This document shows, piece by piece, positions 49,732-64,000 of a stretch of DNA of 64,000 nucleotides. The stretch is from Candidatus Aenigmatarchaeota archaeon (GTDB lineage Archaea; Aenigmatarchaeota; Aenigmatarchaeia; GW2011-AR5): contig JACPJW010000002.1 of assembly GCA_016187335.1 (NCBI GenBank), positions 32,510-96,509 on the forward strand, in the 5' to 3' direction. The first letter of the stretch is position 1; each line of letters opens with the position of its first letter. The notes under the pieces were generated by a model. The model did no database searches. It was not told the DNA's origin and saw only the letters and a program-made list of their open reading frames with translations. Both the position numbers and the translations under genes were made by a program.

Positions 49732-52700
49732 TCATCCGCCGAAATAGCGCAGGAATCCCAAGTCTACTATGTAATTTTCGCTTGCGCGCCCGCCGAGCGG
49801 CTGGCTGACTATTGATGCTTCGCTTTCGTAGTTCTGGCTGGTTCCCTTTATGACTGCCACACTTATCCTGATTCCCGGCGGCTCTTCAAACGCCTGGGCT
49901 GCTGACAGCCAGCTTATTGTGTTCAGCAGTAACCTGCTTCTTGTTGCTGCATCGCTGACGGAATCCAGGGAGAACGCCATGTAAGCTATTTTCTGGCTGC
50001 CTTGGTAAGCGACGATGGCTGATTTGCCGCTGTTCCATCTGGCGACTTCAATGCTGTTGCTGGTGACAGAATCAGGATAAGGTCCTGCGGCGCTGTTGAT
50101 AAGTATCCTGCCTATTCCTGATGTTATTTTGTGCGCTGTTGTGCTTATGTAATTGGAATCCTCGGCTATTATGTCCTTGTCAATGCTCACGGACAGGCCG
50201 CCCACGGTGAAATTGCTGTTGTCAAAGGCTATGTCAGAGCCTTCTATGATTATTCTTTTGGCTTCGCTGAGCAGGGATGCTTCCGTCGCGTTAAGAACGC
50301 CGCCCCAGTAATCGCCCGCGCTCCATATCACGATGTCATGCTTCTTTATTTCCTCCTTTGAAGGCATTCCTTTCTCGCTCTGCTTCCATGTTTTGAAGCA
50401 GTAGCCGCCGGATTTCAGTATGTTCAGCGTATCTTCTACGCTGCTGCCGTTCCCTGAAACGAAAGGCGCGTCGTTGTCTTCAACAACCAGAACGCTCGCA
50501 TTGTTGCAGCCATATAGGGATGATGTGTATCTTTCGGTTGTTCCTCTGGATACATCCTTCGACTGAGCGACAAGTTCATGCACCCCGCTCTCGGTTTTCC
50601 ACAAAAATTCCTGGCTTTGGGTTGAGCCGGGAATAATCGAGCCTGTTTTCTTGCCCAGCGATTTATTCTCGACAAACAGTTCTGTTTCATAGCCTGTTGT
50701 TGCGCCGCCTGCGTTCGAGATGTTTGCAGTTATTTTGGTTGTGTTGCCGCTTCCCGTGGATTCAGGCACGGACAGCAACGTCACCAGCCTGGATTGCGCA
50801 GGAGCGACGCTTACATTAATCTTCATGGAATTGTTGAAATAGGTTGTTTCGGCAATTGCAAATTCCGGGTTTATGAAGAATTCTATCTCATGATTGCCCT
50901 CTATCAACAATAGAGATATTTTAGCTCTTTTACCTTCTGCAGCGACTGTTTTTTGTCTGATTCCATCAACATACGCAGATACAAACAATTTGGGAGGTGT
51001 GTAATTTTCCAAAAAGATGAAAAGTTCATAAGGATTTTTTAGTTCAAGTGAAAACTCAGCTTCAGAAGCGGCTGAGATAAATGTCGGATACGTTGTATTT
51101 TTTATGGCTGAGTCATCAGTAGCTTTTTCAATAAGCCATTTTAATGTATTGTTGGCTAAAGTTTTCTTTTCGCTGTCGACCAGAGAGTCAAATAAAAACG
51201 GCATGAACAGAACCCTGCTGGAGCCTTCATAAGCAACCAATGAAGATTTTCCAGAGCCCCATGATGCTATCTCAACGCCGCCGTTTGCCGGTGTAACTGT
51301 CTCAGGCGATGCGGATAAATTTCCTAACTTGAGCGCCGACAGGCCTTCTACAACAGGGTGCCTTCTTGTCACGTTTATTTCTGACAGTGACTGTGTTGTC
51401 AATACATTTTCAGTTATAACAGCATGAGCCACTTCTTTCATGAAATCGTCGTCAATATGCCTTGATGCGATGTCCTCGCCTTCGAGGAGCAGTTTTCCCT
51501 CAGAAGCTGTATAATTCTTCAGCAAATCAGCGTCTGCATCATCTATGTTTACCTGGTCGTTGCCCTCGCTCCATATTACGGCCGGGAATTTTTTCATGTG
51601 TTCAAGATTTGGTTGGCCGAATATCTTCTTGTCCCAGCGTATCGGGCAGTATGTGCTGTTCAGCGCTTTTTCAAAATCGTTATCACTGTCCACTAGAAGA
51701 ACTTTTTCTTTTGTGCAAGGCTCAACATTAATTTTGCTAACATTTGTAAACACGCAGTTGTCAAACTCATCGCATGCTTTTATCTTGAAAGGAACAGAAC
51801 TTACATTGCTTACAATTTTTATTTCAAAATCATAGGAACTGTCGGAAAATCTGAAAAGGCTCCCTTTTACATTAGGGAATTTCGGGCAAACAGCTCCTAC
51901 TACAGGCAGACATGTAACGTTTTCTGAGACTGTTTCAACTGATTTCACAGAGCTGTCGTCAGAAACCTTTCCTCTTATAATAAAAGGCTCGTCTTCTTTG
52001 ACTTTGTTGTTGAAGCTTATTTCGTCAATTTTTGGCAGATTCTTGTCTATTATTCTTATTGTCTGGTTACTGCTATCATAGTTTCCTTCGTAGAAAACAT
52101 TGAAGCTTACTGAATAATATCCGGTTTTTTTAGCGACAAATGTCCCGTTCAAGGTCTTCTGTGAGGCTGCAGGAACATCAGTATAGCCCATGTCAACAAT
52201 AGAATAAGAATCATTGTCCTTGTAAACAACCGTTTCTGTATGAACGCCAATTGTCATGTTCCAGGGGTTTTCAAATGCAATGCTTACTGGAATTTCTTTG
52301 TTCACCTCCGATTCCGTAGGAACATATGAGGAAACTATCCTTAATATTCTTGGTACAGTAACGTTCATCTGTTTTGTAACGTTTTCTCTCCTGTTCCCAT
52401 AAATTATTGACGCCTTGGATGAGTAAATGCCTCCGGGAATGCTCATTGTTTCTTTCAGGATGAATTTCTTTTCTGATGCAGGGGATATCTCGGATATGTC
52501 AGAGCCGAAAACGTCAAAGGATTTGCCGCTGCTCTCTATTCTTATTTCAACTGAAGCGTTCACGGCAAAGGAATCGTTATTTTTTGCCGTTACTTGGAAT
52601 TCAGCTGCGCTTCCTTTTTCAGACTGCTGCGGCGATACGAAAGAAGTTATTTCAACGGAATCGGGGACGAAAACGGTGAAATTTTTCTGGAATACGCTTC

Positions 52701-54987
52701 TCTTTCTGGTTCCGTCTTCCAAAAATTCTATCCTTAAAGTGTAATCCTTCGGTTCGCCTGAAGCCCAGGTAAAGTTGAATGTGTGCTCTTCGTCGCCTCT
52801 CATGTCCAGCGTTTCGCCGAATGTTTTCCTGTAATCCCCGCCTATCTCGCTTATTTCCATTCTGGATTCAACTTCGTGCGATATAGTATCGGTATTTTTG
52901 TATCTTGCAGAAAATCCGTACTGCCTGTTTGTCGTGAATTCTCCTGGCATTGCAACAATGTAGTCTGTCAGCTCAAACAATGCAGAAAGGTTGGTAACAT
53001 GATTATCCGCATCAGACGAGAAAACCGTAGCCGTGTAGTTTCCAAGCATGGCGTCAGCAGGGAATCTGTATATTTTATCCCATAAAAATTCTCTTTGCTC
53101 TAATTGTATTGTAACCGCGCTATTATTTGGAGCCGTGAAAACAACGCTTACGCTTTTCACCCCTTTGTTGTCGGTCGTGTTCACGGCCAGAAGCACTTCT
53201 TCCCCCCTGAAAATAATCCTGGAAAGGTTGAAGCTGTATATGATAGGCTCGTCGGACTGGTATATGTCAATGCTGACCCTTACCGTCGCGTTCCTGTCGT
53301 TCGTTTCCACGGCAATATTCTCGCTGAATTTTCCCAGACCGAAAGAAGCCGGGTTGAATTCTATGTCCATGTATTCGTCGGTCACCGGCTGGACTACGCT
53401 GCTTGTCAGGGAAACTTTCAGCCTTCCGTCATGTGTTGCATTGCTTATAACCAGGTCTTTCGCTCCAGTGTTGTTCATCTTAACCCGCTTCTTGACCTGC
53501 CTGCTTATCGGCGTTTCTACTGTTACGTTTTCATCCAGACCGATTTTCGGCGGTATTATCTTGCCAAGTTTCACAAGGCCCGAGCCGTGCTTCACGTCCC
53601 TGCCAGCAGGACCTAAATCCAGTGCATTCAGTTCAATCAGTTTTTTGATTTGGCTAGGGTTAAGTTTCGGATTCGCTTCCAGAAGCAAAGCCGCCGCGCC
53701 GGCAACATGAGGCGCTGCCATGCTGGTCCCCCGAAGCAATGAATAGCCTCCTCCAGGAACAGAAGAATTTATCCACTCTCCAGGCGCGACCACGTCCGGC
53801 TTTGTCCCGTAGCCGGATATTTCTCCATAGCTCGAGTAACAAACATATTCATTTCTCTTGTCAACAGATCCTACCGTAAGCGCGTAAGGCGAGCATCCGG
53901 GAGTTGTGACGCCTAAGTAGGATCCGCAGTTTGAGCTTGCGCAATTCAGCTCTCCGCAGTTCCCGGCTGCGACAACAACGAGAACCCCGCGTTCAGTCGC
54001 GTCTTTTATTGCGAGGGATTCGGGCGATGCGAAAGGATTCGAGCATTCCGGCGACCCGAGGCTCATGATTATAACATCGGCACCGTCATCCGTGTTATTG
54101 TCGCCGTCAGGGTCAACAGCCCAGTTTATGGCTGCTATGATGCCGCTCATGCTGCCACTGCCAGAGTCGCCCAGAACCTTCGCGTTGTACAGAAGCACGT
54201 CCGGCGCAACTCCTTTCAGCGTTCCGTTGCCTGCTGCAATCCCCGCAACGTGCGTCCCGTGGCCATAAACATCCGTTGAACTGCCTTCCCCGGTGAATAT
54301 CTTTTCCTTCACCACCTTGCCGCGGAGAATCTCGTGCCTGGAATCAATGCCCGTGTCCAGAACAGCGATCTTGATGCCTTTGCCCGTATAGCCCTTTGCC
54401 CACAGGGAAAGCGCCTCTATCTGCGGCACGCTCTGTTCAAGCATCGCATACACCGGTGTGTCTTGCCATACGCTGACAACGCTCACGCCGCTTGCTATGC
54501 TTTGAACCTTGTTTCCGGGAATTTCGGCTACAACGATGCTGCCGACGGAATAAGAGCCGGAAACGCTTCCTCCGGCTTTTTCTATCTCGGAAGAAACCTT
54601 TTCAAACTCCGAATCGTCCGAAACGTGGAGCAGCACTTTAACCTTTTCATCGGGCTTTTTTTGTATCTCCGATTTGAGCGCAGGCTGTATCTTTTCCGCC
54701 GGCGGCGAACCACCGCCACCACCGCCGCCCCCTCCGGTCCTTGTGATATTTGTGGCGTTTGTTTTCGGTTTTGTTTCATTCCCGGAAAGTTTTTGCCCCT
54801 CTATGGTATTTTTCTGAAAATCAGGCAAAAATGCGGCGACATCCCTTATCTTTGCATCCGCAGTTCTTTCGGGTAGTTTCCCTGAATTATCCTGGGCTAC
54901 GTTTCCTGTAGCGTTTTGCATGCTGAAGAATAATAAAACAGCGGCTACCAGTAACGCCGCGACGCCGACCACAACCCGATTTTTCAT
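49732..54987 (-). CDS. Large secreted S8 (subtilisin-like) serine peptidase, multidomain
   Basis: Signal/anchor, propeptide, VLDTGID, HGTHVAG, GTSMAAPHVAG; Ig/CARDB-like domains; duplicated alpha/beta domain; shared C-terminal domain. Confidence 0.93.
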   Translation of the reverse strand: MKNRVVVGVAALLVAAVLLFFSMQNATGNVAQDNSGKLPERTADAKIRDVAAFLPDFQKNTIEGQKLSGNETKPKTNATNITRTGGGGGGGGGSPPAEKIQPALKSEIQKKPDEKVKVLLHVSDDSEFEKVSSEIEKAGGSVSGSYSVGSIVVAEIPGNKVQSIASGVSVVSVWQDTPVYAMLEQSVPQIEALSLWAKGYTGKGIKIAVLDTGIDSRHEILRGKVVKEKIFTGEGSSTDVYGHGTHVAGIAAGNGTLKGVAPDVLLYNAKVLGDSGSGSMSGIIAAINWAVDPDGDNNTDDGADVIIMSLGSPECSNPFASPESLAIKDATERGVLVVVAAGNCGELNCASSNCGSYLGVTTPGCSPYALTVGSVDKRNEYVCYSSYGEISGYGTKPDVVAPGEWINSSVPGGGYSLLRGTSMAAPHVAGAAALLLEANPKLNPSQIKKLIELNALDLGPAGRDVKHGSGLVKLGKIIPPKIGLDENVTVETPISRQVKKRVKMNNTGAKDLVISNATHDGRLKVSLTSSVVQPVTDEYMDIEFNPASFGLGKFSENIAVETNDRNATVRVSIDIYQSDEPIIYSFNLSRIIFRGEEVLLAVNTTDNKGVKSVSVVFTAPNNSAVTIQLEQREFLWDKIYRFPADAMLGNYTATVFSSDADNHVTNLSALFELTDYIVAMPGEFTTNRQYGFSARYKNTDTISHEVESRMEISEIGGDYRKTFGETLDMRGDEEHTFNFTWASGEPKDYTLRIEFLEDGTRKRSVFQKNFTVFVPDSVEITSFVSPQQSEKGSAAEFQVTAKNNDSFAVNASVEIRIESSGKSFDVFGSDISEISPASEKKFILKETMSIPGGIYSSKASIIYGNRRENVTKQMNVTVPRILRIVSSYVPTESEVNKEIPVSIAFENPWNMTIGVHTETVVYKDNDSYSIVDMGYTDVPAASQKTLNGTFVAKKTGYYSVSFNVFYEGNYDSSNQTIRIIDKNLPKIDEISFNNKVKEDEPFIIRGKVSDDSSVKSVETVSENVTCLPVVGAVCPKFPNVKGSLFRFSDSSYDFEIKIVSNVSSVPFKIKACDEFDNCVFTNVSKINVEPCTKEKVLLVDSDNDFEKALNSTYCPIRWDKKIFGQPNLEHMKKFPAVIWSEGNDQVNIDDADADLLKNYTASEGKLLLEGEDIASRHIDDDFMKEVAHAVITENVLTTQSLSEINVTRRHPVVEGLSALKLGNLSASPETVTPANGGVEIASWGSGKSSLVAYEGSSRVLFMPFLFDSLVDSEKKTLANNTLKWLIEKATDDSAIKNTTYPTFISAASEAEFSLELKNPYELFIFLENYTPPKLFVSAYVDGIRQKTVAAEGKRAKISLLLIEGNHEIEFFINPEFAIAETTYFNNSMKINVSVAPAQSRLVTLLSVPESTGSGNTTKITANISNAGGATTGYETELFVENKSLGKKTGSIIPGSTQSQEFLWKTESGVHELVAQSKDVSRGTTERYTSSLYGCNNASVLVVEDNDAPFVSGNGSSVEDTLNILKSGGYCFKTWKQSEKGMPSKEEIKKHDIVIWSAGDYWGGVLNATEASLLSEAKRIIIEGSDIAFDNSNFTVGGLSVSIDKDIIAEDSNYISTTAHKITSGIGRILINSAAGPYPDSVTSNSIEVARWNSGKSAIVAYQGSQKIAYMAFSLDSVSDAATRSRLLLNTISWLSAAQAFEEPPGIRISVAVIKGTSQNYESEASIVSQPLGGRASENYIVDLGFLRYFGG

Positions 54988-55000
54988 AGGGACGCCTAGG

Positions 55001-55843
55001 TTATTTTTCTTTTCTGAATTTTCCCAGTATCTTGGAAAAGAAGCTTTTCTTTTTTCCCTGCTTTTCTTCGCTTTTTTCTTTTAGTTCGTCTTTCTTTTCA
55101 AAATCCTCTTTCTTTATCCACTTCGTGCCTTCGGGATCAACGTTCCAATAAATCGCCCTTTTTTCCGGAACGTCAGACTTTATCTTGAAACCTAATTCTC
55201 TCAATCTTTTCCGAATCCAGTAGCGAGGGCCTATTTCTTTGCCATCTGCTCCAACGCCTCTTTTACCTAGCCAAACTTTTTCCGAATGTTCCTTGATTAT
55301 GGAAATCAAATCTTTTCTTGAAAGCTTTTTCTTGTAGTTCTTTTTGATTTTAGCAAGAGATTTATCTCTCAAAAATTCATGACTTTTAAAACCTGGAAAC
55401 CATTTTCGACTTATTTGATAATTTTTCAAATATGGTACAATGCAGAAATCGTAAGGGTCTCTGTAGTATTCAAATGCACACACTTCAAGATTACTTATTT
55501 CATCGTTATCTCCAACTCCATACGCGCAAGCCGGATCAATTTCAGCTATTTTGTCGGCTATTGATTCAATTAGAATTTCATAATATCCGTGATTAGACGT
55601 TTCAAAATGAAATCCTACTAAAGGCTCTTCAAAAATTTCTCCTGATTTAGCTGTTTTAATTTTGAAAGCTCCTGCGCCTTTTTCACGGTCCTTATTGTCG
55701 TAAATATAGTATTGGCCAATTTCGTCAATTTTATCTGAGACAAGATTTCCGCTTTTCATTAAAGCTTCAAAAAGCATTTTCCTTGATTTTTCTATATCAG
55801 AATCTTTTTCCAAGATTACATTGACGTAATATCTTACTCCCAT
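55001..55843 (-). CDS. Candidate immunity protein
   Basis: No signal peptide, AT-rich, ATG immediately after toxin stop (TAAATG) with AGGAGG SD; immunity role inferred from position. Confidence 0.55.
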   Translation of the reverse strand: MGVRYYVNVILEKDSDIEKSRKMLFEALMKSGNLVSDKIDEIGQYYIYDNKDREKGAGAFKIKTAKSGEIFEEPLVGFHFETSNHGYYEILIESIADKIAEIDPACAYGVGDNDEISNLEVCAFEYYRDPYDFCIVPYLKNYQISRKWFPGFKSHEFLRDKSLAKIKKNYKKKLSRKDLISIIKEHSEKVWLGKRGVGADGKEIGPRYWIRKRLRELGFKIKSDVPEKRAIYWNVDPEGTKWIKKEDFEKKDELKEKSEEKQGKKKSFFSKILGKFRKEK

Positions 55844-58800
55844 TTACGGACCTCCTGATTTGAATTTATCCACTAGTTGTCTAGCTATATTCTCAAAATC
55901 TATGCCTTTAATAATGTCAAAATCAGCATCAAATCCTTTTTTTGTAAGTTCAGAAACTGTTTTTTGGAGTTTCTTTGTAAGTGCAAAATCCTCTTTACCA
56001 GCCATCAAAAGTATAGAAGGTTTTTCGCCAAAAATTTTTTCTATTTCTTTAGCTCTGCTTATTAAATCATCTAAAGACTCTACAGTGGCATGTTTGACAT
56101 CAAGATAAACTATTTTTTCATCAACAATAATAAGACCGTCTATTTCTTTTATTGCAGACCCTACTCTTTTACCATTAACAACTTTATAAATCTCATATGT
56201 TCCTCTAGAAACATCTTCAACTAGTTCTCGGGTTCCGTCTGGAGACAAATATCGCTTTCCTGCTGAGAAATCTAAAAATCTTAATTTGACTCCTTCCTTT
56301 TCGGCTTTTTCCTTAATTATATTTAGATAAACTTTGTTTGTTACCCTTTCAGGAAGATATCCTTTAAGAGCATCTATCTTTTTCAAATCATTTTCAGCAT
56401 TGAATAGATTTTTAGGCAAATCTTCAGGCTTGAGTCCTTTAAGAAACGTCTTAGATTTTTCCGTTATTTCTGGAGCGTGCCTTTCACCAAGTTTTGCAAT
56501 GTATTTTCCGACATTTCTGAATCCTTTGAAAATATATTTTGCTTCTTTCGCTATCCATTCAACAGCAACATCGATTTCGCCTTTAGCGATTATGTAAGCT
56601 TTACCTACTCTATTTATTACTGTTTTTCCAAAAGGCAATGCTTCCAAACCTTTTACACCATAGAAAGCTATTTTGGATCCTACCTTTTCAATTATTTTAT
56701 CTATGAAAAATCCTGGGACAAAACTTACACCGAAAAACACTTGTTCCGAACCGCATTTTTCCCATATTTCTCCACCGCCTATAAATTTACCCATGCAGTA
56801 CGGAAGCGGCTTATTGCCTACAAGGCATTCATTCATAATACTTGTGCATTTGTTGACAGCATCCATGCCTTCTGAACTAACAGCGCACTGACACAGATCA
56901 TATGCGGTCCATGCGATAAACCCAACGTAAAGAGCGTATCCTATTAATACAGGTAAAAAAGTAGTTCTTACTTTACCGTTTTCATCAGTTTCCAAAACCA
57001 TTATATGTGTGGAATTGTATTGTTGAGATTTTACAGGGAAAAGATTCGTATTATCAAGTTTAACTAAGATTTCAGTTTTAAATGCCGTTATAGTAATATC
57101 TTTTTCATATTTCATTATTTCAGAAGAAACATAATCTTTTGTTATGTTTACAAATATTGATAATTTATGATTACCAAAATCAACATCGTTTATTATAACT
57201 TTTCCAAAGGGATTGCTTAATTTTCCTTCTTGGCTGTTATCTAATATAACATAAGCATTCGCAACAGGAACTTCCTGTTCACCTGTAACGTTTATCTTCA
57301 GTGTGGCTTTCCTCGAACACGCGCAGTCGAAAACGGCAGAAACGGTGCTGCTGCTACTTACGAAAATATTCTTTGTGCCGCAAGTGCTGCCGCTCGGGCA
57401 GTAAACCCCGACCGTGTGGGTCCCGCTTGAAGCGGAAGTGGAAAGTTTTCCTGAATTGTCGGTTTCTCCCTGCAGCGTGCTGTCCATGAAAACTTTGGCC
57501 TTGGGGAGCGCGGCTCCGCTGTCCTTGGCTGTGACGACTACCCGGCCGGCATTGTCATATACGGTTATTTTTTTTACGATTGTTGCCGAATTGTATCCGG
57601 GCTTGCTTGCCGTTATGCGGAAATAGTTCAGCCCTGTTCTCGAAGCGGTTGTCGTGTATTCGTATCTTCCCGAGGAGTCCGTCTTCGACGAAACGTATTT
57701 CTGCGCCATAGGATCGTAGATTGTCAGGTCAGAGCCAGTCACAGGCGAAGAAGAAGTGGCCGTGCTGATTGTTATTCTGGCGCTGTCTCCTTTCCTGTAC
57801 ACCTCGTTTCCTGTTGCCGTCAATATAATGTTCTGCGCTGCCGCGCATACCTGGCATTGAAATTCCAGGTTATCGTTGTCGCCGTCCCAGTCGGTGATTG
57901 CAGATTTTGTAGCGCAGCTTACCCCGCTTTTGCACCTGATTTCAACATTATGCGTTTTTCCGCAGGAAGAATCCGTGACGCTTAGCAAAGCTTTTCCTGA
58001 GATGTCCGTTGTCGTCGTAAAGGAGCCGTCGAGATAAACGTTCGTTCCCTGAAGCGGGTTTCCGTATCTGTCTCTTACGTACGGCGTTATCGTTCCTCTG
58101 CATGTGGTAGGATTGGACGTGCATGTGGAAGGGATTGCGGGATAAGCCGAAGTGTACCTTGTTTTCGTGCTCGAAGGGCAGCTTCCGACTATTTCGGCCT
58201 TGGATTCGTAGCTGCCTGATTGCCACGTGCCGCCGGAGGGAACCCATTTTACCCACCAATAATAGTTTCCTCCCGCATCCATTATGCCGCTGTTTGAAAC
58301 CTTATCGAGCTGTATCCCGTCGCGGTAAAGGTAGAAGTTTATCTTGAAAGGGATGTTAGTCGTTTTCGTGTTCCTGAACTCGTGATGCGTTATTATGTTG
58401 TCCCTGCACCGGTTGTCCTGGCCTACGTAGGATCTTGTCGTCTCGAAATCGCAGTTTTCGCACGCTTTTGCGGAGAATGTTATGCGGGTGTAGTCTATGT
58501 CTTCTGTCCTGCATTTCGTTACAAACTTCCCCTCTACGGTGTATGTGCCGTCAAGAGGCCATCCTCCCGATGGCGGGTAATTGACCAATGTCCATCTGAC
58601 TTCCGTCCTTGCCGGGAGCTTCTCGTTCGCCTTTGTGATGGAGCCAATCACTTTGCCTTGGGGATCGTAAAGATTGAACGTGACATCGTAGGTTATTTCC
58701 GCGTATGTGGGATTCTCGAAGAAATGATATGTAGTTACGTCCTCCCTGCAGCTGAAATCCCTTTTGTCCATCCTGACGCTTATGGCATTTCCCGAGCATG

Positions 58801-59569
58801 TGGTGCAGGTGTTTGACTTGCACATCTCGTCCGATTTGCTGCAGTGAGAGTCCTGGGTGCATAGCATGTTGACGTAAACATCCTTGGAATGTTCGGTGCC
58901 GTCGATATTGTCATGCGTGACGAATTTCAGTCTCCATTTTCCGGCATAGCCTAATCTTAATTCAAACCACTGAGATACGCACAACCATGGGGAATTCCCG
59001 GAATTCTTGAAATTGGATTGTATATAGTATTGTCCGTTATTCCATTTGAGCTGGTTTCCGCCAGAATCATAAAGATAAACTCTTTGGTAATAATCCCATC
59101 TCTGGTTATGGACAACATCGTTCACTCTCTGGTAAACGTAAAACCTGTCCCCGCTTTTTACAGAACTTATCTGGTTGCAGCTTGATTCCCAGTTCCCGCA
59201 GTATTGGCCGCTGGGCTGGTTCGAGCAGAGCATGTGGTTGCTCGTGTAAATCTCGGCGGAGAAATTACCGCTTTCTGCGATTCCGCTTGAGGATGATGTT
59301 GCGTCGCCGACAAACCCTCCTGACGCCGTTACAAGCGGCGCAATGGTCTGCTCCTGCGGCGCTGTTCCGTTTTGCACGATTCCTGTTATCGCGTAATTTT
59401 CTTCGCTCACGTTTGACTTCGGTATTATCGTATATGTCGCTACCAGCGGCGGGTACGTGACATTTTCAGGCGCGTAATTTTCAACATAGCCGGTATAAAC
59501 AGAAGTTGAGCTGGATGTTGCTTCAGCATGGGAAAACGCCACAAAAATAAGTGTAAAGAAAACGAACAT
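55844..59569 (-). CDS. Secreted polymorphic-toxin-like protein with C-terminal PD-(D/E)xK nuclease-like domain
   Basis: Signal peptide from ATG 59569; Cys/Ig-like stalk; hydrophobic region; tip with GYLPE, EIDGLII, YLDVK. Confidence 0.7.
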   Translation of the reverse strand: MFVFFTLIFVAFSHAEATSSSTSVYTGYVENYAPENVTYPPLVATYTIIPKSNVSEENYAITGIVQNGTAPQEQTIAPLVTASGGFVGDATSSSSGIAESGNFSAEIYTSNHMLCSNQPSGQYCGNWESSCNQISSVKSGDRFYVYQRVNDVVHNQRWDYYQRVYLYDSGGNQLKWNNGQYYIQSNFKNSGNSPWLCVSQWFELRLGYAGKWRLKFVTHDNIDGTEHSKDVYVNMLCTQDSHCSKSDEMCKSNTCTTCSGNAISVRMDKRDFSCREDVTTYHFFENPTYAEITYDVTFNLYDPQGKVIGSITKANEKLPARTEVRWTLVNYPPSGGWPLDGTYTVEGKFVTKCRTEDIDYTRITFSAKACENCDFETTRSYVGQDNRCRDNIITHHEFRNTKTTNIPFKINFYLYRDGIQLDKVSNSGIMDAGGNYYWWVKWVPSGGTWQSGSYESKAEIVGSCPSSTKTRYTSAYPAIPSTCTSNPTTCRGTITPYVRDRYGNPLQGTNVYLDGSFTTTTDISGKALLSVTDSSCGKTHNVEIRCKSGVSCATKSAITDWDGDNDNLEFQCQVCAAAQNIILTATGNEVYRKGDSARITISTATSSSPVTGSDLTIYDPMAQKYVSSKTDSSGRYEYTTTASRTGLNYFRITASKPGYNSATIVKKITVYDNAGRVVVTAKDSGAALPKAKVFMDSTLQGETDNSGKLSTSASSGTHTVGVYCPSGSTCGTKNIFVSSSSTVSAVFDCACSRKATLKINVTGEQEVPVANAYVILDNSQEGKLSNPFGKVIINDVDFGNHKLSIFVNITKDYVSSEIMKYEKDITITAFKTEILVKLDNTNLFPVKSQQYNSTHIMVLETDENGKVRTTFLPVLIGYALYVGFIAWTAYDLCQCAVSSEGMDAVNKCTSIMNECLVGNKPLPYCMGKFIGGGEIWEKCGSEQVFFGVSFVPGFFIDKIIEKVGSKIAFYGVKGLEALPFGKTVINRVGKAYIIAKGEIDVAVEWIAKEAKYIFKGFRNVGKYIAKLGERHAPEITEKSKTFLKGLKPEDLPKNLFNAENDLKKIDALKGYLPERVTNKVYLNIIKEKAEKEGVKLRFLDFSAGKRYLSPDGTRELVEDVSRGTYEIYKVVNGKRVGSAIKEIDGLIIVDEKIVYLDVKHATVESLDDLISRAKEIEKIFGEKPSILLMAGKEDFALTKKLQKTVSELTKKGFDADFDIIKGIDFENIARQLVDKFKSGGP

Positions 59570-59582
59570 TGAGGCATTAATT

Positions 59583-60920
59583 TTATATCGCAAGGAAATC
59601 CCACCAAGGCTTCTTGACGGATAAGATTTCAGAGTTAGATGCGTCAATCTTGACATTGTAAGAAATCTTCACGGGTATAATGCCAAGAATCTTCTTTTCC
59701 TTCTTCGCTTCAACGCTGTAAACGGGCTTTTCGTTCTCGCTCTCTATTGTTATCTTCTCAGAAGAAGCTCCTGTGCTGTTTCTGGCTATTTCAGAAGCTG
59801 CATCCGGAAGCGTCTTGATTCTGGCTCCGGTTTTATCATCCGTATATATGCCCTCGCCTGTTATTTTTATTGGAAGATTTGATTCGGCGCTGGAATTCTG
59901 GGAAACGACCGTCACTGAGCCGGAGGTTCTTTCTATTTTTACTTCCTTGGTTCCGCTGCCTGATTTTATCCTTGCATTAACGACTACATTGTTTTCATCC
60001 TTGGTTACGTTTACTATACTGAGGGTTTGACCCTCGGCTGGCGATATTTCAGAATATTCCTTTTTTTCTGCGTCAAATGAAAACGAGAAATTAATCGCAA
60101 TCGGCGGCGAAACTAGCGGTTTTATTTCAATAGCATCTTTTCCAGGACCTTCTAGCGATTTGTTATCTTTCAAAGGCTTTTCTTGTTCCGCTGCTTCATA
60201 AATACCGCCGGCTGCTGAACCGCCTCCGCCTCCTCCTCCACCACTGCTGCTGCTACTTCCGCCTCCGTATGATTCATTATAAGGATATGGCGCCGGCGTG
60301 TAGTTCTTTTTCCTTTCGCGCTCCCTTTCCTCGGCTATCCGAATTTCCTCTTCCGTCATCGGCCTTTTCTCGTAAGTTAGGATAGGCGGCGGGTAAGTCA
60401 CGTTTTCCGGCTCTTCTACGTAGCCTGTATAGATAGAAGTTGAGCCGGTCGTGGCGCTATATTCTGCTTGACCGCCGGAGTCGCCACCTCCTGAACTTGA
60501 GCTGGAACTTGATCCCCCAAGAGATGGGCAGACATCAACTTTTTTCCACTCTTTTGGCAGGCATGAAGAGGGGAATGACAAACAGCTTCCATCCGGACCG
60601 ACGGCTAGCGTTGAAACCTCTGGGCATATAACAGGATTTTTGCAGTCTTTTTCATCAACAAGTCTAAATCCTCTAGGAATACAAGAATTAAGGAAAATCA
60701 TGCATGTGTCGTTTTCATTAACCGTATAGTATGTTCCGGGCTTGCACCAACCTATAGTAGAAAATTCCTGTCCTTCGGATGTGTTAACAAAAAATGATAA
60801 AATTATCGCTCCCAGCATTATCAGGAAAAATTTTTTGTTCATTGTGATGGCTACGGTTTTCAGAAGAAGTGCGGCCTTTTTGGTGATGCTGGCGCAGTCA
60901 GCCTTAGGACACAACCCCAT
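59583..60920 (-). CDS. Secreted protein with Cys-rich N-terminus, Gly/Ser linkers and PepSY-like C-terminal domain
   Basis: Signal peptide; PVYSVEAK..KILGIIPVK..KIDASNSEILSVKKPWW; start may be a later Met (MNKKFF). Confidence 0.75.
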   Translation of the reverse strand: MGLCPKADCASITKKAALLLKTVAITMNKKFFLIMLGAIILSFFVNTSEGQEFSTIGWCKPGTYYTVNENDTCMIFLNSCIPRGFRLVDEKDCKNPVICPEVSTLAVGPDGSCLSFPSSCLPKEWKKVDVCPSLGGSSSSSSSGGGDSGGQAEYSATTGSTSIYTGYVEEPENVTYPPPILTYEKRPMTEEEIRIAEERERERKKNYTPAPYPYNESYGGGSSSSSGGGGGGGGSAAGGIYEAAEQEKPLKDNKSLEGPGKDAIEIKPLVSPPIAINFSFSFDAEKKEYSEISPAEGQTLSIVNVTKDENNVVVNARIKSGSGTKEVKIERTSGSVTVVSQNSSAESNLPIKITGEGIYTDDKTGARIKTLPDAASEIARNSTGASSEKITIESENEKPVYSVEAKKEKKILGIIPVKISYNVKIDASNSEILSVKKPWWDFLAI

Positions 60921-60996
60921 TAAGATTAAATGAAACTTAAAACCCTCTTAAAACAATTTACCAGAAGAATTGCTTACTGAAAAGTCATGAAACTCA

Positions 60997-63666
60997 TTAG
61001 CCGAAGAATTCGGAATATCCCACCCTTACGATGTAGTTCGTGCCGTTGTACACGCCGACGGGCATGTGGAAGACTCCCGCCTGCGTGTTGTAATTCGTGC
61101 CGGAGCCGTTGAAGCTTCCGCCGCCCTTCACGTTTTCCGGTATGGTGTAGTTTGAAACCACCGTGGTGTTGAGGGTGAATCCGACGGCGGAAGAGTTGAA
61201 TATCGTTCCCGCCGTGTTGTTTGCAAAAACCGTCATGGAATTGGCGCCTGCTGCCACGGTGAAAGTGGCGTTCGCGCAGCCGGGCAGGCTCGTGTTGGCG
61301 TTGTTATGCCTGTACCAGCACGCCTGCGCTGTCCCGTTCAGGGTGTAGTTGAGCTGTATGACTGTGTCCGTGTATGTCCTGTTCGCAGGCGACGCTAATA
61401 CTATTGTCACGTCTCCGGCCGCGGCCGATATGAGCGCCGAATTGTTCGCATTGAAAGTCTCGCCGTACGAGCTCGAGGATGCGTTCACAAGAAAGTTAAA
61501 TGTTCCCGTGCTGGCTGATGTTAATATCCAAGAAGCTGTTTTATTAGAACTCGCATTCAGAAAGCCAAGCGACTGCGGGTTCGAGCCGGAAACTATGGTA
61601 AGGAAGGATGAGGTCAATGTGAGGTTCACGCTGACATTATGCGCGGCTAAATCGCCGCCGTTAGCCACATTCGCGGTGAAATTAAATTCTTGGCTCACGA
61701 AAGCTGTAGGAGAACCCAGCGATACGCTGAGCGAAGGCGGGTCTGCAGCGCTTATGCTTTTCGACGCTGCGACGGCGTACTCTTCGGTATTGCTGTTGTG
61801 CGTGAAGTTGGTGGTGAAGGCGTGGACCTTCACGACCACGCTGGAGTAGCTCGCGCCCGTGCCGACCTGCTCCGTGTTCTCAACGCCCGTGATGGACCTC
61901 GATATCTGCGTGTTCGCCGACTCGTTATAAATGTAAATGTCAAGGTCGTTCAGCGAATAATATGTTGTCGGGCTGTTTGCGCCGTTATATACAACATGCC
62001 TGTTCCATTCCAGGGTCGCTTTGTTGCCCGCGCTCATGTTGGTGATTTTGTAAAATTTCACTGCGCCTTCGGTTATGTTGTCAAGAACGACGTTGTTGCG
62101 CTGCGCGTACGCCTCGCCCAGGTCCATCACGCCCCAGCCGAACGCCCTCCTGTCGGAAAATGTCGCGTTCTTGGCACTGTTGAGCATGAGCGCCCTTATC
62201 GCAATCGGGTTCCACTTTAATCCTTTATAATTAAGCACGAGCGCTACCGCTCCGGAAACGTGCGGCGTCGCCATGCTCGTCCCGCTCGCGCCCACAAAAT
62301 CGTCCGTGGTTTCCCATATATTATAAGCAGAAATTATGCTGCTGCCAGGCGCCGCTATGTCCGGCTTTACCCGGCCGTCCGAGGTGAATCCGCGTGAACT
62401 GAAGGAAGATATGGCGTCATCGCTTGTATCGCCGACGGAATCGCACGTGTTCATGTCATTCTGAGAAGCGACGCTGAAGAAGTTGTAGCCTGGTGCGCCG
62501 ACTGTGCTGTTCGACGGGCCGTCATTGCCCGCGGAGTTAGCAACAGAAACATCAAGATCATCAACAATTGCGTCGAGATATCTCGCGTTGGCGCAGTCGC
62601 TGACGCCGCTTCCACACAGCCCGAAACTTCTGCTTATTACGTCCGCTCCTGCAGTTGAAATTGCCCAGTCCATTGCCTTCATGCCGTCGGAATTATACAT
62701 CCATCCTCCTGTTGTGCTGTTCGCGCCCGCCTTTGCGTTTATCAGCCTTGTGCCGTAAGCGATTCCCCTGTACTTGGAATCCCTGCTTGCTATAATCCCG
62801 GCCACATGCGTGCCGTGAAAGTGCAGGTCGTCCGTCGTGTTAGGATTATCCCTGTATGAGGAATCCGTTACAGCCGTATCGTGGAAAGTTCTATTCGCTG
62901 TGACGACTCCTGTAAGCGCAGGATGATTCGCATCAACGCCTGTATCAAGGTCGGTAACATCCCATCCTGTCCCGTTGTATCCGGCAGAATAAAATGTATC
63001 TGCCCCGGTTGCGCAGACGCTCTTGTCGAGCGTTGCAAAAGTTTTCTCATCCTCGTAAACAGCTGCGATCTCGCCGCTTTCCTTGAGCGCCTGAAGGCAT
63101 TTCTTCGGTATCCTTGCGAAAACGCTGTTGATCACTATTCCCGTGCCGGTAGCGCTTCCTCCGCATTTTTCCACTATATCGCCGACCAGGTTCTGCTGCG
63201 GCTCCGCGAGATTTTTCTGCCTGAGCATTATGTCCCTTTTCATCATGTCCTTTATGGAGTCTATTTTTTCAACAGTTTCTTTCATCCTGCTTTTTTCCTC
63301 CTTCGTCAGGGCGGAAGTCTGGTACTCCACGGCCTTTTCCAGTCCTAATGACCTTATCTGTCCTTCATCCAGCTGCCTGAACTTTTTTTCTATTTCCTCG
63401 AGCACCTTCGCCTCTTCATCAACTTTCTGGTCGTACTGCGGCTTCACGTTCCTGCTGATTTCGTGCAGCGGCTGGTCCTTGAGGACGATTATTGCCGGAA
63501 ATTCACCGGGAGCAATTTCCGGATTTGCCAGGAGATCCGACGTATCAGGCTCCTGCGAAGGGGCGGGACCCTTCACTGCCTCGGCGAACGAAAGGGGAGC
63601 TAGAACCAGTATGCATATCGTAAAAACAGCGAATCTTATCTTTGCCGGATTCAAAACAGCTTGCAT
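60997..63666 (-). CDS. Secreted S8 serine peptidase with Ig-like domains and shared C-terminal domain
   Basis: Signal peptide, DLDTGVD, HGTHVAG, GTSMATPHVSG, NDLDIYIY. Confidence 0.93.
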   Translation of the reverse strand: MQAVLNPAKIRFAVFTICILVLAPLSFAEAVKGPAPSQEPDTSDLLANPEIAPGEFPAIIVLKDQPLHEISRNVKPQYDQKVDEEAKVLEEIEKKFRQLDEGQIRSLGLEKAVEYQTSALTKEEKSRMKETVEKIDSIKDMMKRDIMLRQKNLAEPQQNLVGDIVEKCGGSATGTGIVINSVFARIPKKCLQALKESGEIAAVYEDEKTFATLDKSVCATGADTFYSAGYNGTGWDVTDLDTGVDANHPALTGVVTANRTFHDTAVTDSSYRDNPNTTDDLHFHGTHVAGIIASRDSKYRGIAYGTRLINAKAGANSTTGGWMYNSDGMKAMDWAISTAGADVISRSFGLCGSGVSDCANARYLDAIVDDLDVSVANSAGNDGPSNSTVGAPGYNFFSVASQNDMNTCDSVGDTSDDAISSFSSRGFTSDGRVKPDIAAPGSSIISAYNIWETTDDFVGASGTSMATPHVSGAVALVLNYKGLKWNPIAIRALMLNSAKNATFSDRRAFGWGVMDLGEAYAQRNNVVLDNITEGAVKFYKITNMSAGNKATLEWNRHVVYNGANSPTTYYSLNDLDIYIYNESANTQISRSITGVENTEQVGTGASYSSVVVKVHAFTTNFTHNSNTEEYAVAASKSISAADPPSLSVSLGSPTAFVSQEFNFTANVANGGDLAAHNVSVNLTLTSSFLTIVSGSNPQSLGFLNASSNKTASWILTSASTGTFNFLVNASSSSYGETFNANNSALISAAAGDVTIVLASPANRTYTDTVIQLNYTLNGTAQACWYRHNNANTSLPGCANATFTVAAGANSMTVFANNTAGTIFNSSAVGFTLNTTVVSNYTIPENVKGGGSFNGSGTNYNTQAGVFHMPVGVYNGTNYIVRVGYSEFFG

Positions 63667-63724
63667 AGCGATCGGAAACCTAGTTTATTTTTTCTTTAGT
63701 TTATTTAAATCCGGGAATTCCACC

Positions 63725-64000
63725 TCAGCCGAAGTATTGGTTGTAGCCTATCTCTATCACGTAATTGGAGCTTGTATTCCTGCCGACCGGGCCTCTCCCC
63801 ACGGTTGTTTCTGTGTTGTAGTTTGCGCTCGAGTTTTTCGACGAGCCGTGGCCGATGCCGATTTTCTTCCTCGGCACTATGTAATTCGCGGATATTTCCC
63901 TCCACGTTCCGCTGTCGCATTTTTCATTTTTATTGTCGTCGTTCACGTCGCCTACAAAGCTGTCAGGGTAGCATGTTTTCCCGTAAACGCAGCTTTCGTT
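63725..64000 (-). CDS. 3' end of a Cys-containing protein carrying the shared C-terminal domain (partial)
   Basis: Frame is open to the window edge (NESCVYGKTCYPDSFVGDVNDD...YVIEIGYNQYFG*). Confidence 0.8.
   Translation of the reverse strand, partial: NESCVYGKTCYPDSFVGDVNDDNKNEKCDSGTWREISANYIVPRKKIGIGHGSSKNSSANYNTETTVGRGPVGRNTSSNYVIEIGYNQYFG

Follow-up and report, generated by a model that had tools for sequence, protein, structure and literature searches.

The window analyzed here, a stretch of 64,000 nucleotides, forms the last 64 kb of contig 1 in the assembly of a Candidatus Aenigmatarchaeota archaeon (GCA_016187335.1, here G000; 1.01 Mb, two contigs, 91% complete). Its end carries six co-oriented open reading frames (ORFs), all on the minus strand and located where a previous reading made from the letters of the DNA (the sequence-only reading) had placed them: the tail of a Cys-rich protein (P0006), a secreted subtilase (P0001), a secreted protein rich in Cys and Gly/Ser (P0002), a large surface protein with a nuclease-like end (P0003), a candidate immunity protein (P0004), and a giant secreted subtilase (P0005) (Table 1). 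The export signals assigned by that reading to all complete members except the immunity candidate were also recovered, as judged by hydropathy alone: P0001, P0002, P0003, and P0005 begin with a hydrophobic segment, and P0004 does not. The whole row had been interpreted as one extracellular machine that displays, proteolytically releases, and delivers a nuclease. Here, we describe the part of it that is conserved, a triad formed by P0003, P0004, and P0005.

A conserved three-gene unit

To find relatives, the last 411 residues of P0003 were used as the query in an exhaustive search of 1.8 billion cluster representatives, which returned only six proteins; genome scans and contig look-ups added others. 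In the end, eight loci were collected, including that of the source genome (G000, L003, L011, L012, L013, L022, L023 to L025, and L026 to L028), three of them from Woesearchaeota metagenome-assembled genomes (MAGs) and the others from assemblies and metagenome contigs. Wherever there was enough sequence (8/8 loci), the gene of a big P0003-type protein precedes a P0004-like gene, whose position does not change between loci, and the gene of a giant S8 subtilase comes next. Orthologs of P0005 lie downstream of the partner gene in L003, L011, L012, L013, L022, L023, and L027, and their homology reaches well past the catalytic domain (e.g., 30% identity over 1668 residues in L012). Among the big proteins, P0013 is a full-length collinear ortholog of P0003 (32% identity over 1213 aa). 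P0014, P0015, P0018, and the proteins of L011 and L013 have different distal N-terminal parts and share with P0003 the last stalk domain, a transmembrane (TM) helix, a Cys loop, and the nuclease domain.

The module was missing from 370 other sampled genomes of the phylum, and the noncatalytic part of P0005 from 43 other genomes of the family, so that the three genes appear to be present or absent together. Two scans of the metagenome-contig collection and one of the viral-contig collection found no relatives. Word-indexed protein searches recovered only P0004 itself with P0004, nothing with the whole of P0003, and only P0018 with the module profile against longer proteins; these blanks mean little because the same search missed P0013 and P0019, which were found by other routes. 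Counterparts of P0001, P0002, and P0007 (the complete form of the Cys-rich protein; see below) were not found next to the triad in the other loci. The expected co-conservation of the row therefore holds for P0003, P0004, and P0005, adjacent in 8/8 loci, but not for P0001, P0002, and the Cys-rich protein, which have to be dropped as parts of the same machine. The triad is the only conserved unit of the locus.

A nuclease fold at the end of P0003

On record, the gene call for P0003 begins at Met30 (position 59569), giving 1241 aa. The longer frame opens with a signal-type N terminus and a short motif shared with P0002 (tag 2; see below), continues as a Cys-rich stalk of immunoglobulin-like (Ig) and CarboxypepD_reg domains, and passes through a TM helix and a 4-Cys loop into a short hydrophobic segment, a Lys-rich helical region, and a PD-(D/E)xK domain. 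Its ectodomain contains Big_1, CarboxypepD_reg, and Fn3_arc-type domains; by hydropathy and domain matches, it thus joins an export signal to a repeat/filament region, as polymorphic toxins do. In the juxtamembrane module, the TM helix (residues 900-918) leads into an acidic loop (919-972), whose four Cys are invariant, and then into a short hydrophobic F.P segment (973-986).

The terminal domain escaped profile searches. At the nuclease part, neither P0003 nor its relatives matched Pfam at E ≤ 0.1 or any NCBIfam family, and the Tox-REase-2, -3, and -7, other Tox-REase, NERD, and Mrr_cat profiles gave only a weak language-model resemblance (0.78-0.84). PDB sequence and profile searches with the nuclease part, P0004, and the two appended extensions described below yielded nothing meaningful. 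An alignment-free structure of the C-terminal 411 aa was unusable (predicted local distance difference test [pLDDT] of 42). An AlphaFold2 (AF2) model built on an 8-sequence alignment reached a pLDDT of 70-92 across residues 1045-1270 and contains the alpha-beta-beta-beta-alpha-beta core of the PD-(D/E)xK superfamily (helix 196-226, strands 269-276, 280-284, and 287-294, helix 301-315, and strand 320-325 in model numbering). When this model was compared by VIA against ~48,000 solved chains, the top 30 matches were nearly all PD-(D/E)xK nucleases (Z 5.0-6.8), and the neighbors include NgoMIV, SgrAI, NucS, Can2, Card1, HamA, FokI, McrC, NucC, and a CdiA-CT toxin (4g6u). Foldseek and ESM Atlas neighbors were nucleases of the same kind. 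Within the domain, which has the motifs GYLPE, EIDG, and LDVK, the model places the candidate catalytic residues E1103 on the first helix and D1173 and D1186-x-K1188 on consecutive strands; the E and D are invariant in the family, and the K is present in 7/8 sequences. The nuclease proposed for the tip is thus supported as a fold by AF2, VIA, Foldseek, and the Atlas, and the modeled domain may well have nuclease activity.

The partner gene P0004 and the subtilase P0005

P0004 is marked by the motifs EYYR[DN]PYxFC and PRY[WF][IV]RK and had no match in Pfam, NCBIfam, PADLOC, or PDB sequences; the putative nuclease family and its candidate partner family are both new to the profile libraries. A complex prediction with the nuclease domain and P0004 entered as alignments returned a score of 0.00 ("no answer"), which speaks neither for nor against binding. 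The end of P0004 (window 55001-55130, C-terminal ~40 aa) has the motif SFFSKILGKFR and lies within the part of the gene with normal codon composition. In five relatives, similar basic amphipathic ends of the KFFKKIFGIFR kind were seen on all of the small, low-complexity secreted proteins whose genes lie upstream of the big one (Table 1).

P0005 starts with a hydrophobic anchor and a Gly run. Its S8 domain (residues 202-470) is followed by Ig-like and CARDB domains, two copies of an alpha/beta domain, and, at the C terminus, a second shared motif (tag 1; see below). PADLOC gave only generic subtilase/IetS matches and one weak REase_II match (E 0.0041).

A compositionally foreign cassette

The G+C content at third codon positions (GC3) changes within P0003 at codon 789 (window position ~57289), from 0.58 to 0.22 (log-likelihood ratio, 83). 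This is the strongest internal GC3 break among the 64 ORFs of at least 600 codons in the genome, whose median GC3 is 0.59. Low values span the last ~480 codons of P0003, persist for ~200 codons into P0004, and then recover. Amino acid composition was ruled out as the cause of the AT-rich block, given that the GC3 expected from its amino acid content is 0.545; every amino acid there uses A/T-ending codons. The break falls where the module that is conserved across the family begins, and the L011 locus shows a milder form of the same pattern. The magnitude of the break, the codon usage, and the position at the start of the module confirm the AT-rich swapped tip suspected by the sequence-only reading, with an extension into P0004.

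Types of candidate effector ends and their partners

The nuclease domains fall into four diverged types (A to D), and the neighboring partners sort into the same groups: G000 with L003; L004, L011, L012, and L022; L013 with L023; and L027. Matching groups could by themselves arise from phylogeny alone. The candidate immunity gene lies directly downstream of the big gene in 8/8 loci, and its types co-vary with those of the tip.

Two of the loci also carry, behind the main gene, orphan cassettes of a tip and a partner gene. In L022, the main gene with a type-A tip and its own partner are followed by a 78-aa orphan-tail ORF and a second partner; the orphan tail is 60-62% identical to the L013/P0018-type tail, i.e., of another type than the main tip, and the second partner belongs to that same L013/P0018 type (224-233 bits). 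The order in L026 to L028 is main gene, partner, an ORF composed of two pieces of tail with 39-43% identity to the main tip, and a second partner 38.6% identical to the first.

Further toxin-like ends are appended in two relatives. Up to the end of the nuclease domain, the proteins of L011 and L012 share 48.5% identity; beyond it, they carry unrelated extensions of ~240-280 residues. One of them (on P0016) resembles ADP-ribosyltransferases (ARTs) of the R-S-E class: it matched a Scabin-like family at E 0.0024 with 18.2 bits, below the cut-off of 27, its Atlas features point to ART families at 0.89-0.92, and it has the motifs FRGR, STS, and ESE. The other carries a HELAH (HExxH) motif. Each extension is followed by one extra ORF; the two ORFs are unrelated, and both precede the P0004-like gene. 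For the idea that stalk and proteases stay constant while tip and immunity gene vary, the picture is mixed: co-varying types, orphans, and unrelated appended ends agree with it, but the tip-seeded search found only one tip fold, and the protease P0001 is not conserved.

Some further features of the relatives were observed. In L012 (a Woesearchaeota MAG; L012:1387-5852), the big gene is split into ORFs of 691 and 741 aa in different frames with an overlapping open stretch, so that the gene is either a frameshifted pseudogene or misassembled. A polytopic membrane protein with a HELGH motif is encoded between the partner genes and the giant subtilase of L011 (14080-14658), and a 139-aa multi-TM protein occupies the matching position in L022. 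An IS200-type Y1 transposase gene lies right behind the giant subtilase at L026:12097-12531, L027:11919-12353, and L028:9083-9517; these three loci are those carrying the orphan-tail ORF P0017.

Glycosylation sites

The genome encodes an STT3/AglB homolog, and N-x-S/T sequons were counted against expectation. In the post-TM regions of eight members, none was observed against 12.5 expected, and the two appended extensions have none either. The ectodomains of the family are also poor in sequons (26 observed versus ~85 expected). The adjacent subtilases are sequon rich (P0005, 44 observed versus 16.8 expected), as are the small secreted neighbors. Cytoplasmic proxies have an observed/expected ratio of 0.94, and the P0004 family is neutral (3 observed versus 3.8 expected). 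Because the sequences are related, the significance of the deficit lies between ~1e-5 and 0.02. This pattern suggests that the whole P0003-type protein, tail included, is kept without glycosylation sites, as would be expected for a protein that has to cross or enter another cell.

Lineage-specific neighbors and contig ends

Both P0001 and P0005 exceed the Peptidase_S8 cut-off of 21.8 (146 and 190 bits), with readable DTG, HGTH, and GTSMA motifs. A third secreted subtilase (~920 codons; contig 2 of G000, ~501400-504440, minus strand), 31-33% identical to both, lies outside the locus and has no tag 1. Residues 373-435 of P0002 resemble PepSY with 21.0 bits, below the cut-off of 24 (E 4.2e-4).

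The sequence-only reading had described two private tags as links among the members. Both are real but confined to this genome. Tag 1 is a domain of ~54 aa ending in NY[IVM][IV]x[ILV]G[YF]xx[YF]FG, and its carriers in the 1.01-Mb genome are exactly P0001, P0005, and P0006/P0007; among 69 other genomes of the order, it was absent but for one weak match (E 7.3e-4) in a stop-interrupted frame. Tag 2 (STS[VI]YTGYVE..PENVTYPP) occurs only on P0002 and P0003, and its two copies differ mostly at synonymous sites. A strand-donation contact between tag 1 and the strand-like Y-T-G-Y-V of tag 2 is conceivable. A role of tag 1 as a pilin-like acceptor was discarded, its sole support being a match of the P0006 tag-1 region to the NCBIfam profile of PamT, a pilus tip protein of the candidate phyla radiation (CPR), with an E value of 4.4e-5 and a score of 23 bits, far short of the cut-off of 240 (PMC13278184). 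P0001, P0002, and P0007 are neighboring secreted proteins of this lineage that share private tags and stand outside the conserved module.

The last 377 nt of the window (63624-64000) overlap the first 362 nt of contig 2 (L002:1-362) at 95% identity, and the start of contig 1 (1-250) pairs with the end of contig 2 at 97.6%. Both junctions are thus overlaps (95-97.6%) and not true gaps. The genome is probably a single circle interrupted at sites that are repeated or vary between strains, and one of the two breaks falls inside the gene of the Cys-rich protein. Since the end of the window matches the start of contig 2, the locus most likely continues there, and P0006 would be the tail, or a near-copy, of the 1293-aa P0007. 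The latter has tag 1, a CARDB domain, and a HEYGH motif that might belong to a zinc protease, and the last third of its sequence is very rich in Cys. Near codon 674, its GC3 rises from 0.37 to 0.72, an internal change point that only one other in the genome exceeds in strength, and by composition this gene, too, looks like a mosaic. Past P0007, contig 2 encodes three paralogous lipoprotein-like proteins (P0008 to P0010), a 420-aa secreted protein, and then a P-type ATPase, so that the secreted-protein cluster extends ~8 kb beyond the end of the window. No family matched P0008 to P0010, which are strongly enriched in N-x-S/T sequons (7 observed versus 1.5 expected).

At the population level, contigs from four groundwater runs (two studies) cover the locus near-identically and show no alternative tip; contigs drop rare variants, so this uniformity is not evidence that variants are absent.

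TABLE 1 Features of the locus and of its relatives (window positions unless a locus prefix is given)
Feature	Position	Strand	Remarks
P0003, 1270 aa	55844..59656	-	Surface protein of the triad
Tag 2 in P0003	59447..59518	-	Right behind the signal-type segment
Juxtamembrane module of P0003	56699..56959	-	TM helix, Cys loop, F.P segment
PD-(D/E)xK nuclease-fold domain, residues ~1048-1265	55862..56515	-	AF2 model and structural neighbors
Candidate catalytic E1103	56348-56350	-	
Candidate catalytic D1173	56138-56140	-	
Candidate catalytic D1186	56099-56101	-	
Candidate catalytic K1188	56093-56095	-	
Foreign-composition cassette	55230..57289	-	P0003 from the last stalk domain through TM helix and Cys loop to the nuclease domain; initial ~204 codons of P0004
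P0004, 280 aa	55001..55843	-	Candidate cognate partner/immunity protein; no hydrophobic segment or export signal
P0005, 1751 aa	49732..54987	-	Giant secreted subtilase, Peptidase_S8 (E 8.3e-56); third triad member
Tag 1 on P0005	49738..49899	-	C-terminal domain of ~54 aa with three NY motifs
P0002, 445 aa	59583..60920	-	Secreted, Cys- and Gly/Ser-rich; lineage-specific neighbor
Tag 2 in P0002	60387..60449	-	
P0001, 889 aa	60997..63666	-	Secreted subtilase, Peptidase_S8 (Pfam E 1.5e-42); lineage-specific neighbor
Tag 1 on P0001	61000-61158	-	
P0006, C-terminal 91 aa of Cys-rich protein	63725..64000	-	Carries tag 1; truncated by contig end
P0007, 1293 aa	L002:87-3968	-	Contig 2; secreted, complete near-identical form of the P0006 tail
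P0008-P0010, three tandem paralogs	L002:3989-6700	-	Lipoprotein-like N termini, repeated LPEGFxLVxGNLSWxG units
Proteins with basic amphipathic end	L011:7309-7968; L013:6441-7175; L027:424-939; L023:716-1465; L022:884-1843		Five relatives

A candidate toxin/immunity module

We consider it probable that the region 49732-59656 holds a rare module of three genes that moves laterally among Woesearchaeota-type DPANN archaea, follows polymorphic toxin/immunity logic, and has a dedicated subtilase. As its layout follows that logic, the sequence-only reading seems largely right for the core of P0003, P0004, and P0005, which would represent a candidate polymorphic toxin/antidote set like the exchangeable ones that bacteria use against their neighbors. 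We infer toxicity of the effector, its neutralization by P0004, a role for the protease, a target, and a route of the post-TM domain to that target, as follows. P0003 would be exported via its N-terminal signal and display an adhesin-like distal part that varies, carried by a conserved stalk of Ig and CarboxypepD_reg domains, with the PD-(D/E)xK domain behind the juxtamembrane module (TM helix and 4-Cys loop) as the effector. The cytoplasmic P0004 would be the cognate neutralizer of that type of nuclease. P0005 would be a dedicated accessory that most likely processes or releases the effector part or, alternatively, opens the surface layer of the target. Nuclease and partner would be swapped between lineages as a unit through recombination inside the big gene, and in the source genome such a swap would have replaced codons ~790-1270 of P0003 and most of P0004.

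Several observations weigh against this interpretation. A strong TM helix precedes the nuclease in every member, and the display-and-release model of the sequence-only reading leaves this helix between stalk and nuclease unexplained. The P0003 segment behind the Cys loop is too short for a sure second membrane span, and the region past it is Lys-rich and Cys-free in 8/8 aligned members, as cytoplasmic domains usually are. The simplest reading of the sequences would thus put the nuclease, and the ART and HExxH ends of the relatives, in the cytoplasm of the producer. No orphan cassette is present in the window, where P0004 abuts P0005. Every tip found has one fold, and an N-terminal-seeded search found nothing; a single fold among the tips is expected from a search that was seeded with the tip, and a stalk carrying unrelated tip folds was not found among the relatives within this tip-seeded scope. 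The closest ortholog, P0013, has ELS in place of (D/E)xK, yet retains the partner gene. Lastly, the Z scores of the fold matches are middling (below 8). Despite this, we take the PD-(D/E)xK fold of the P0003 end as established, because the matches are uniform and the conserved residues sit where expected.

The topology would suit a host-contact receptor or adhesin, a type I membrane protein with a permanently cytoplasmic nuclease and no toxin delivery. Its ectodomain would bind the host, the subtilase would open the host S-layer, and the tethered nuclease, regulated by P0004, would degrade incoming DNA for nucleotides or protection. The model here is SPEARE, giant membrane-anchored proteins of Nanohaloarchaeota for which a theme of serine protease and nuclease was proposed in host interaction (PMC6642349), and which likewise have a C-terminal-proximal TM helix, a variable distal ectodomain, and a conserved post-TM part. 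The Lys-rich, Cys-free post-TM part, the lack of an export signal on P0004, and a ~1-Mb genome typical of host-dependent DPANN archaea fit as well. However, a receptor explains neither the orphan nuclease tails with matched partner genes nor the appended ART-like and HExxH ends with their private ORFs, the cassette replacement inside the gene, or the total lack of sequons in the post-TM part, and a patchy distribution would be odd for a core host-interaction device. Moreover, the "restriction" domain of SPEARE, the cytoplasmic one, is now read as a VirB4/TraG ATPase (PMC10266531), and no ATPase family matched P0003 after the TM helix or elsewhere. Homology to SPEARE was therefore ruled out, which leaves it as an analog and not a relative. 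We regard the receptor as possible, though rather unlikely.

Between toxin and receptor stands a reading that we hold to be doubtful, in which the effector stays TM-anchored on the inner face of the symbiont membrane and reaches the host at a contact site where the membranes become continuous. The adhesin ectodomain and the subtilase might help to open the site, the nuclease (or the ART or metalloprotease in relatives) might act in the host cytoplasm, for example to free nucleotides, and P0004-type proteins might protect the producer and its kin. A variant reading would instead make the TM helix and disulfide loop a translocation segment nicked by the system's own subtilase, in analogy to the nicking of AB toxins by furin.

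A transmembrane defense system of the abortive-infection kind, in which the variable ectodomain detects viruses or foreign cells at the surface and thereby activates effectors in the cytoplasm that P0004-type proteins otherwise restrain, seems improbable to us. Nucleases, ARTs, and metalloproteases are effector types common across conflict systems, effector and inhibitor genes adjoin and co-vary, the distribution is patchy with signs of lateral transfer, the topology suits effectors inside the cell, and there is the weak REase_II match in PADLOC. However, PADLOC matched no known defense system, start-less orphan tips are typical of secreted polymorphic toxins and not of defense systems, and a giant secreted subtilase rich in glycosylation sites has no obvious role in defense. 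The ectodomain is built of adhesin-type domains (Ig, CARDB, and CarboxypepD_reg), and the lack of post-TM sequons is left unexplained. That there is no functional system at all, only adjacent surface-protein genes whose compositional break and tags are by-products of frequent recombination among secreted-protein genes, would agree with the mosaic composition of P0007, the privacy of the tags, and the poor conservation of P0001, P0002, and P0007, but is highly improbable in view of three genes kept in the same order in eight loci from distant genomes, present or absent as a unit, with co-varying nuclease and partner types.

Comparison with known systems

The association of subtilases with polymorphic toxins is on record for bacteria: subtilisin-type proteases are listed among the processing proteases and neighbors of Sec-exported toxins (PMC3482391, Table 1), and PD-(D/E)xK and ART domains among the toxin domains (Zhang et al. 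2012, PMC3482391). For this reason, the architecture, which had looked new to the sequence-only reading, is not wholly undescribed. In the present module, as in CdiA-CT/CdiI and Rhs-CT/RhsI (PMC3482391), a large exported repeat or Ig-stalk protein bears a putative C-terminal effector, a small cytoplasmic partner is encoded directly downstream, effector and partner appear to be swapped as a unit, orphan ends come with their own partners (here in L022 and L027), and PD-(D/E)xK nucleases and ARTs serve as effector types. Unlike in those systems, the bearer is a DPANN-type archaeon, nuclease and partner have no Pfam or NCBIfam match, a TM helix and a 4-Cys loop stand between stalk and effector, addition of a second toxin-like end leaves the nuclease in place, the unit includes a giant subtilase as its obligatory third member, and there is no known dedicated secretion machinery. 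The CdiA-CT of E. coli EC869 with its CdiI (4g6u) is likewise a PD-(D/E)xK-fold toxin at the C terminus of a surface protein with its neutralizer encoded just downstream. It aligned with the P0003 model over 119 residues (Z 5.8, root mean square deviation of 3.4), no better than many restriction enzymes did; the sequences are not similar, and P0004 and CdiI are unrelated.

Pseudomonas exotoxin A and diphtheria toxin are ordered as a binding part, a segment with hydrophobic helices and a disulfide loop, and a catalytic part, and the activating cut is made by furin, a protease of the S8 family. The domain order of P0003 is comparable, an S8-family protease is at hand, and one relative has an ART-like end as its putative catalytic part. 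No homology was detected, the protease here is encoded by the producer, and the analogy would be functional only.

Within archaea, SPEARE resembles P0003 as a DPANN surface protein with an adhesin-rich ectodomain. Unlike SPEARE, the present module has a post-TM domain of the PD-(D/E)xK fold and encodes its protease separately, and cognate partners and orphan cassettes occur in addition. In the VARTIG modules of Thermococcales, small variable genes follow that of a large protein with Ig domains, the C-terminal part of which recombines between genomes, and the authors of that study liken the arrangement to polymorphic toxin systems (PMC8416519). The variable part there is an Ig domain without an enzyme-like effector, the protein families are not the same, and no subtilase is present. 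New or unusual in the present module are the DPANN host, two unrecognized families, the obligatory giant subtilase, the TM/Cys-loop segment, and a nuclease retained beside a second end.

The means by which DPANN archaea fight or exploit neighbors and hosts are very poorly known, and archaeal polymorphic toxins rest almost wholly on prediction. The module offers a small, well-delimited candidate pair, a nuclease domain of ~225 aa and a partner of ~240 aa, in four natural specificity types, along with a dedicated protease and an unusual membrane-spanning segment before the effector. If the effector is delivered, it would reveal how a cell with a single membrane and only Sec export hands a toxin over to another; were this to happen through continuous membranes, it would be a membrane-exchange route for archaeal polymorphic toxins without a translocation step. 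If it is not delivered, the module would define a new kind of surface receptor with a nuclease inside. Either outcome would inform models of the contact between DPANN archaea and their hosts.

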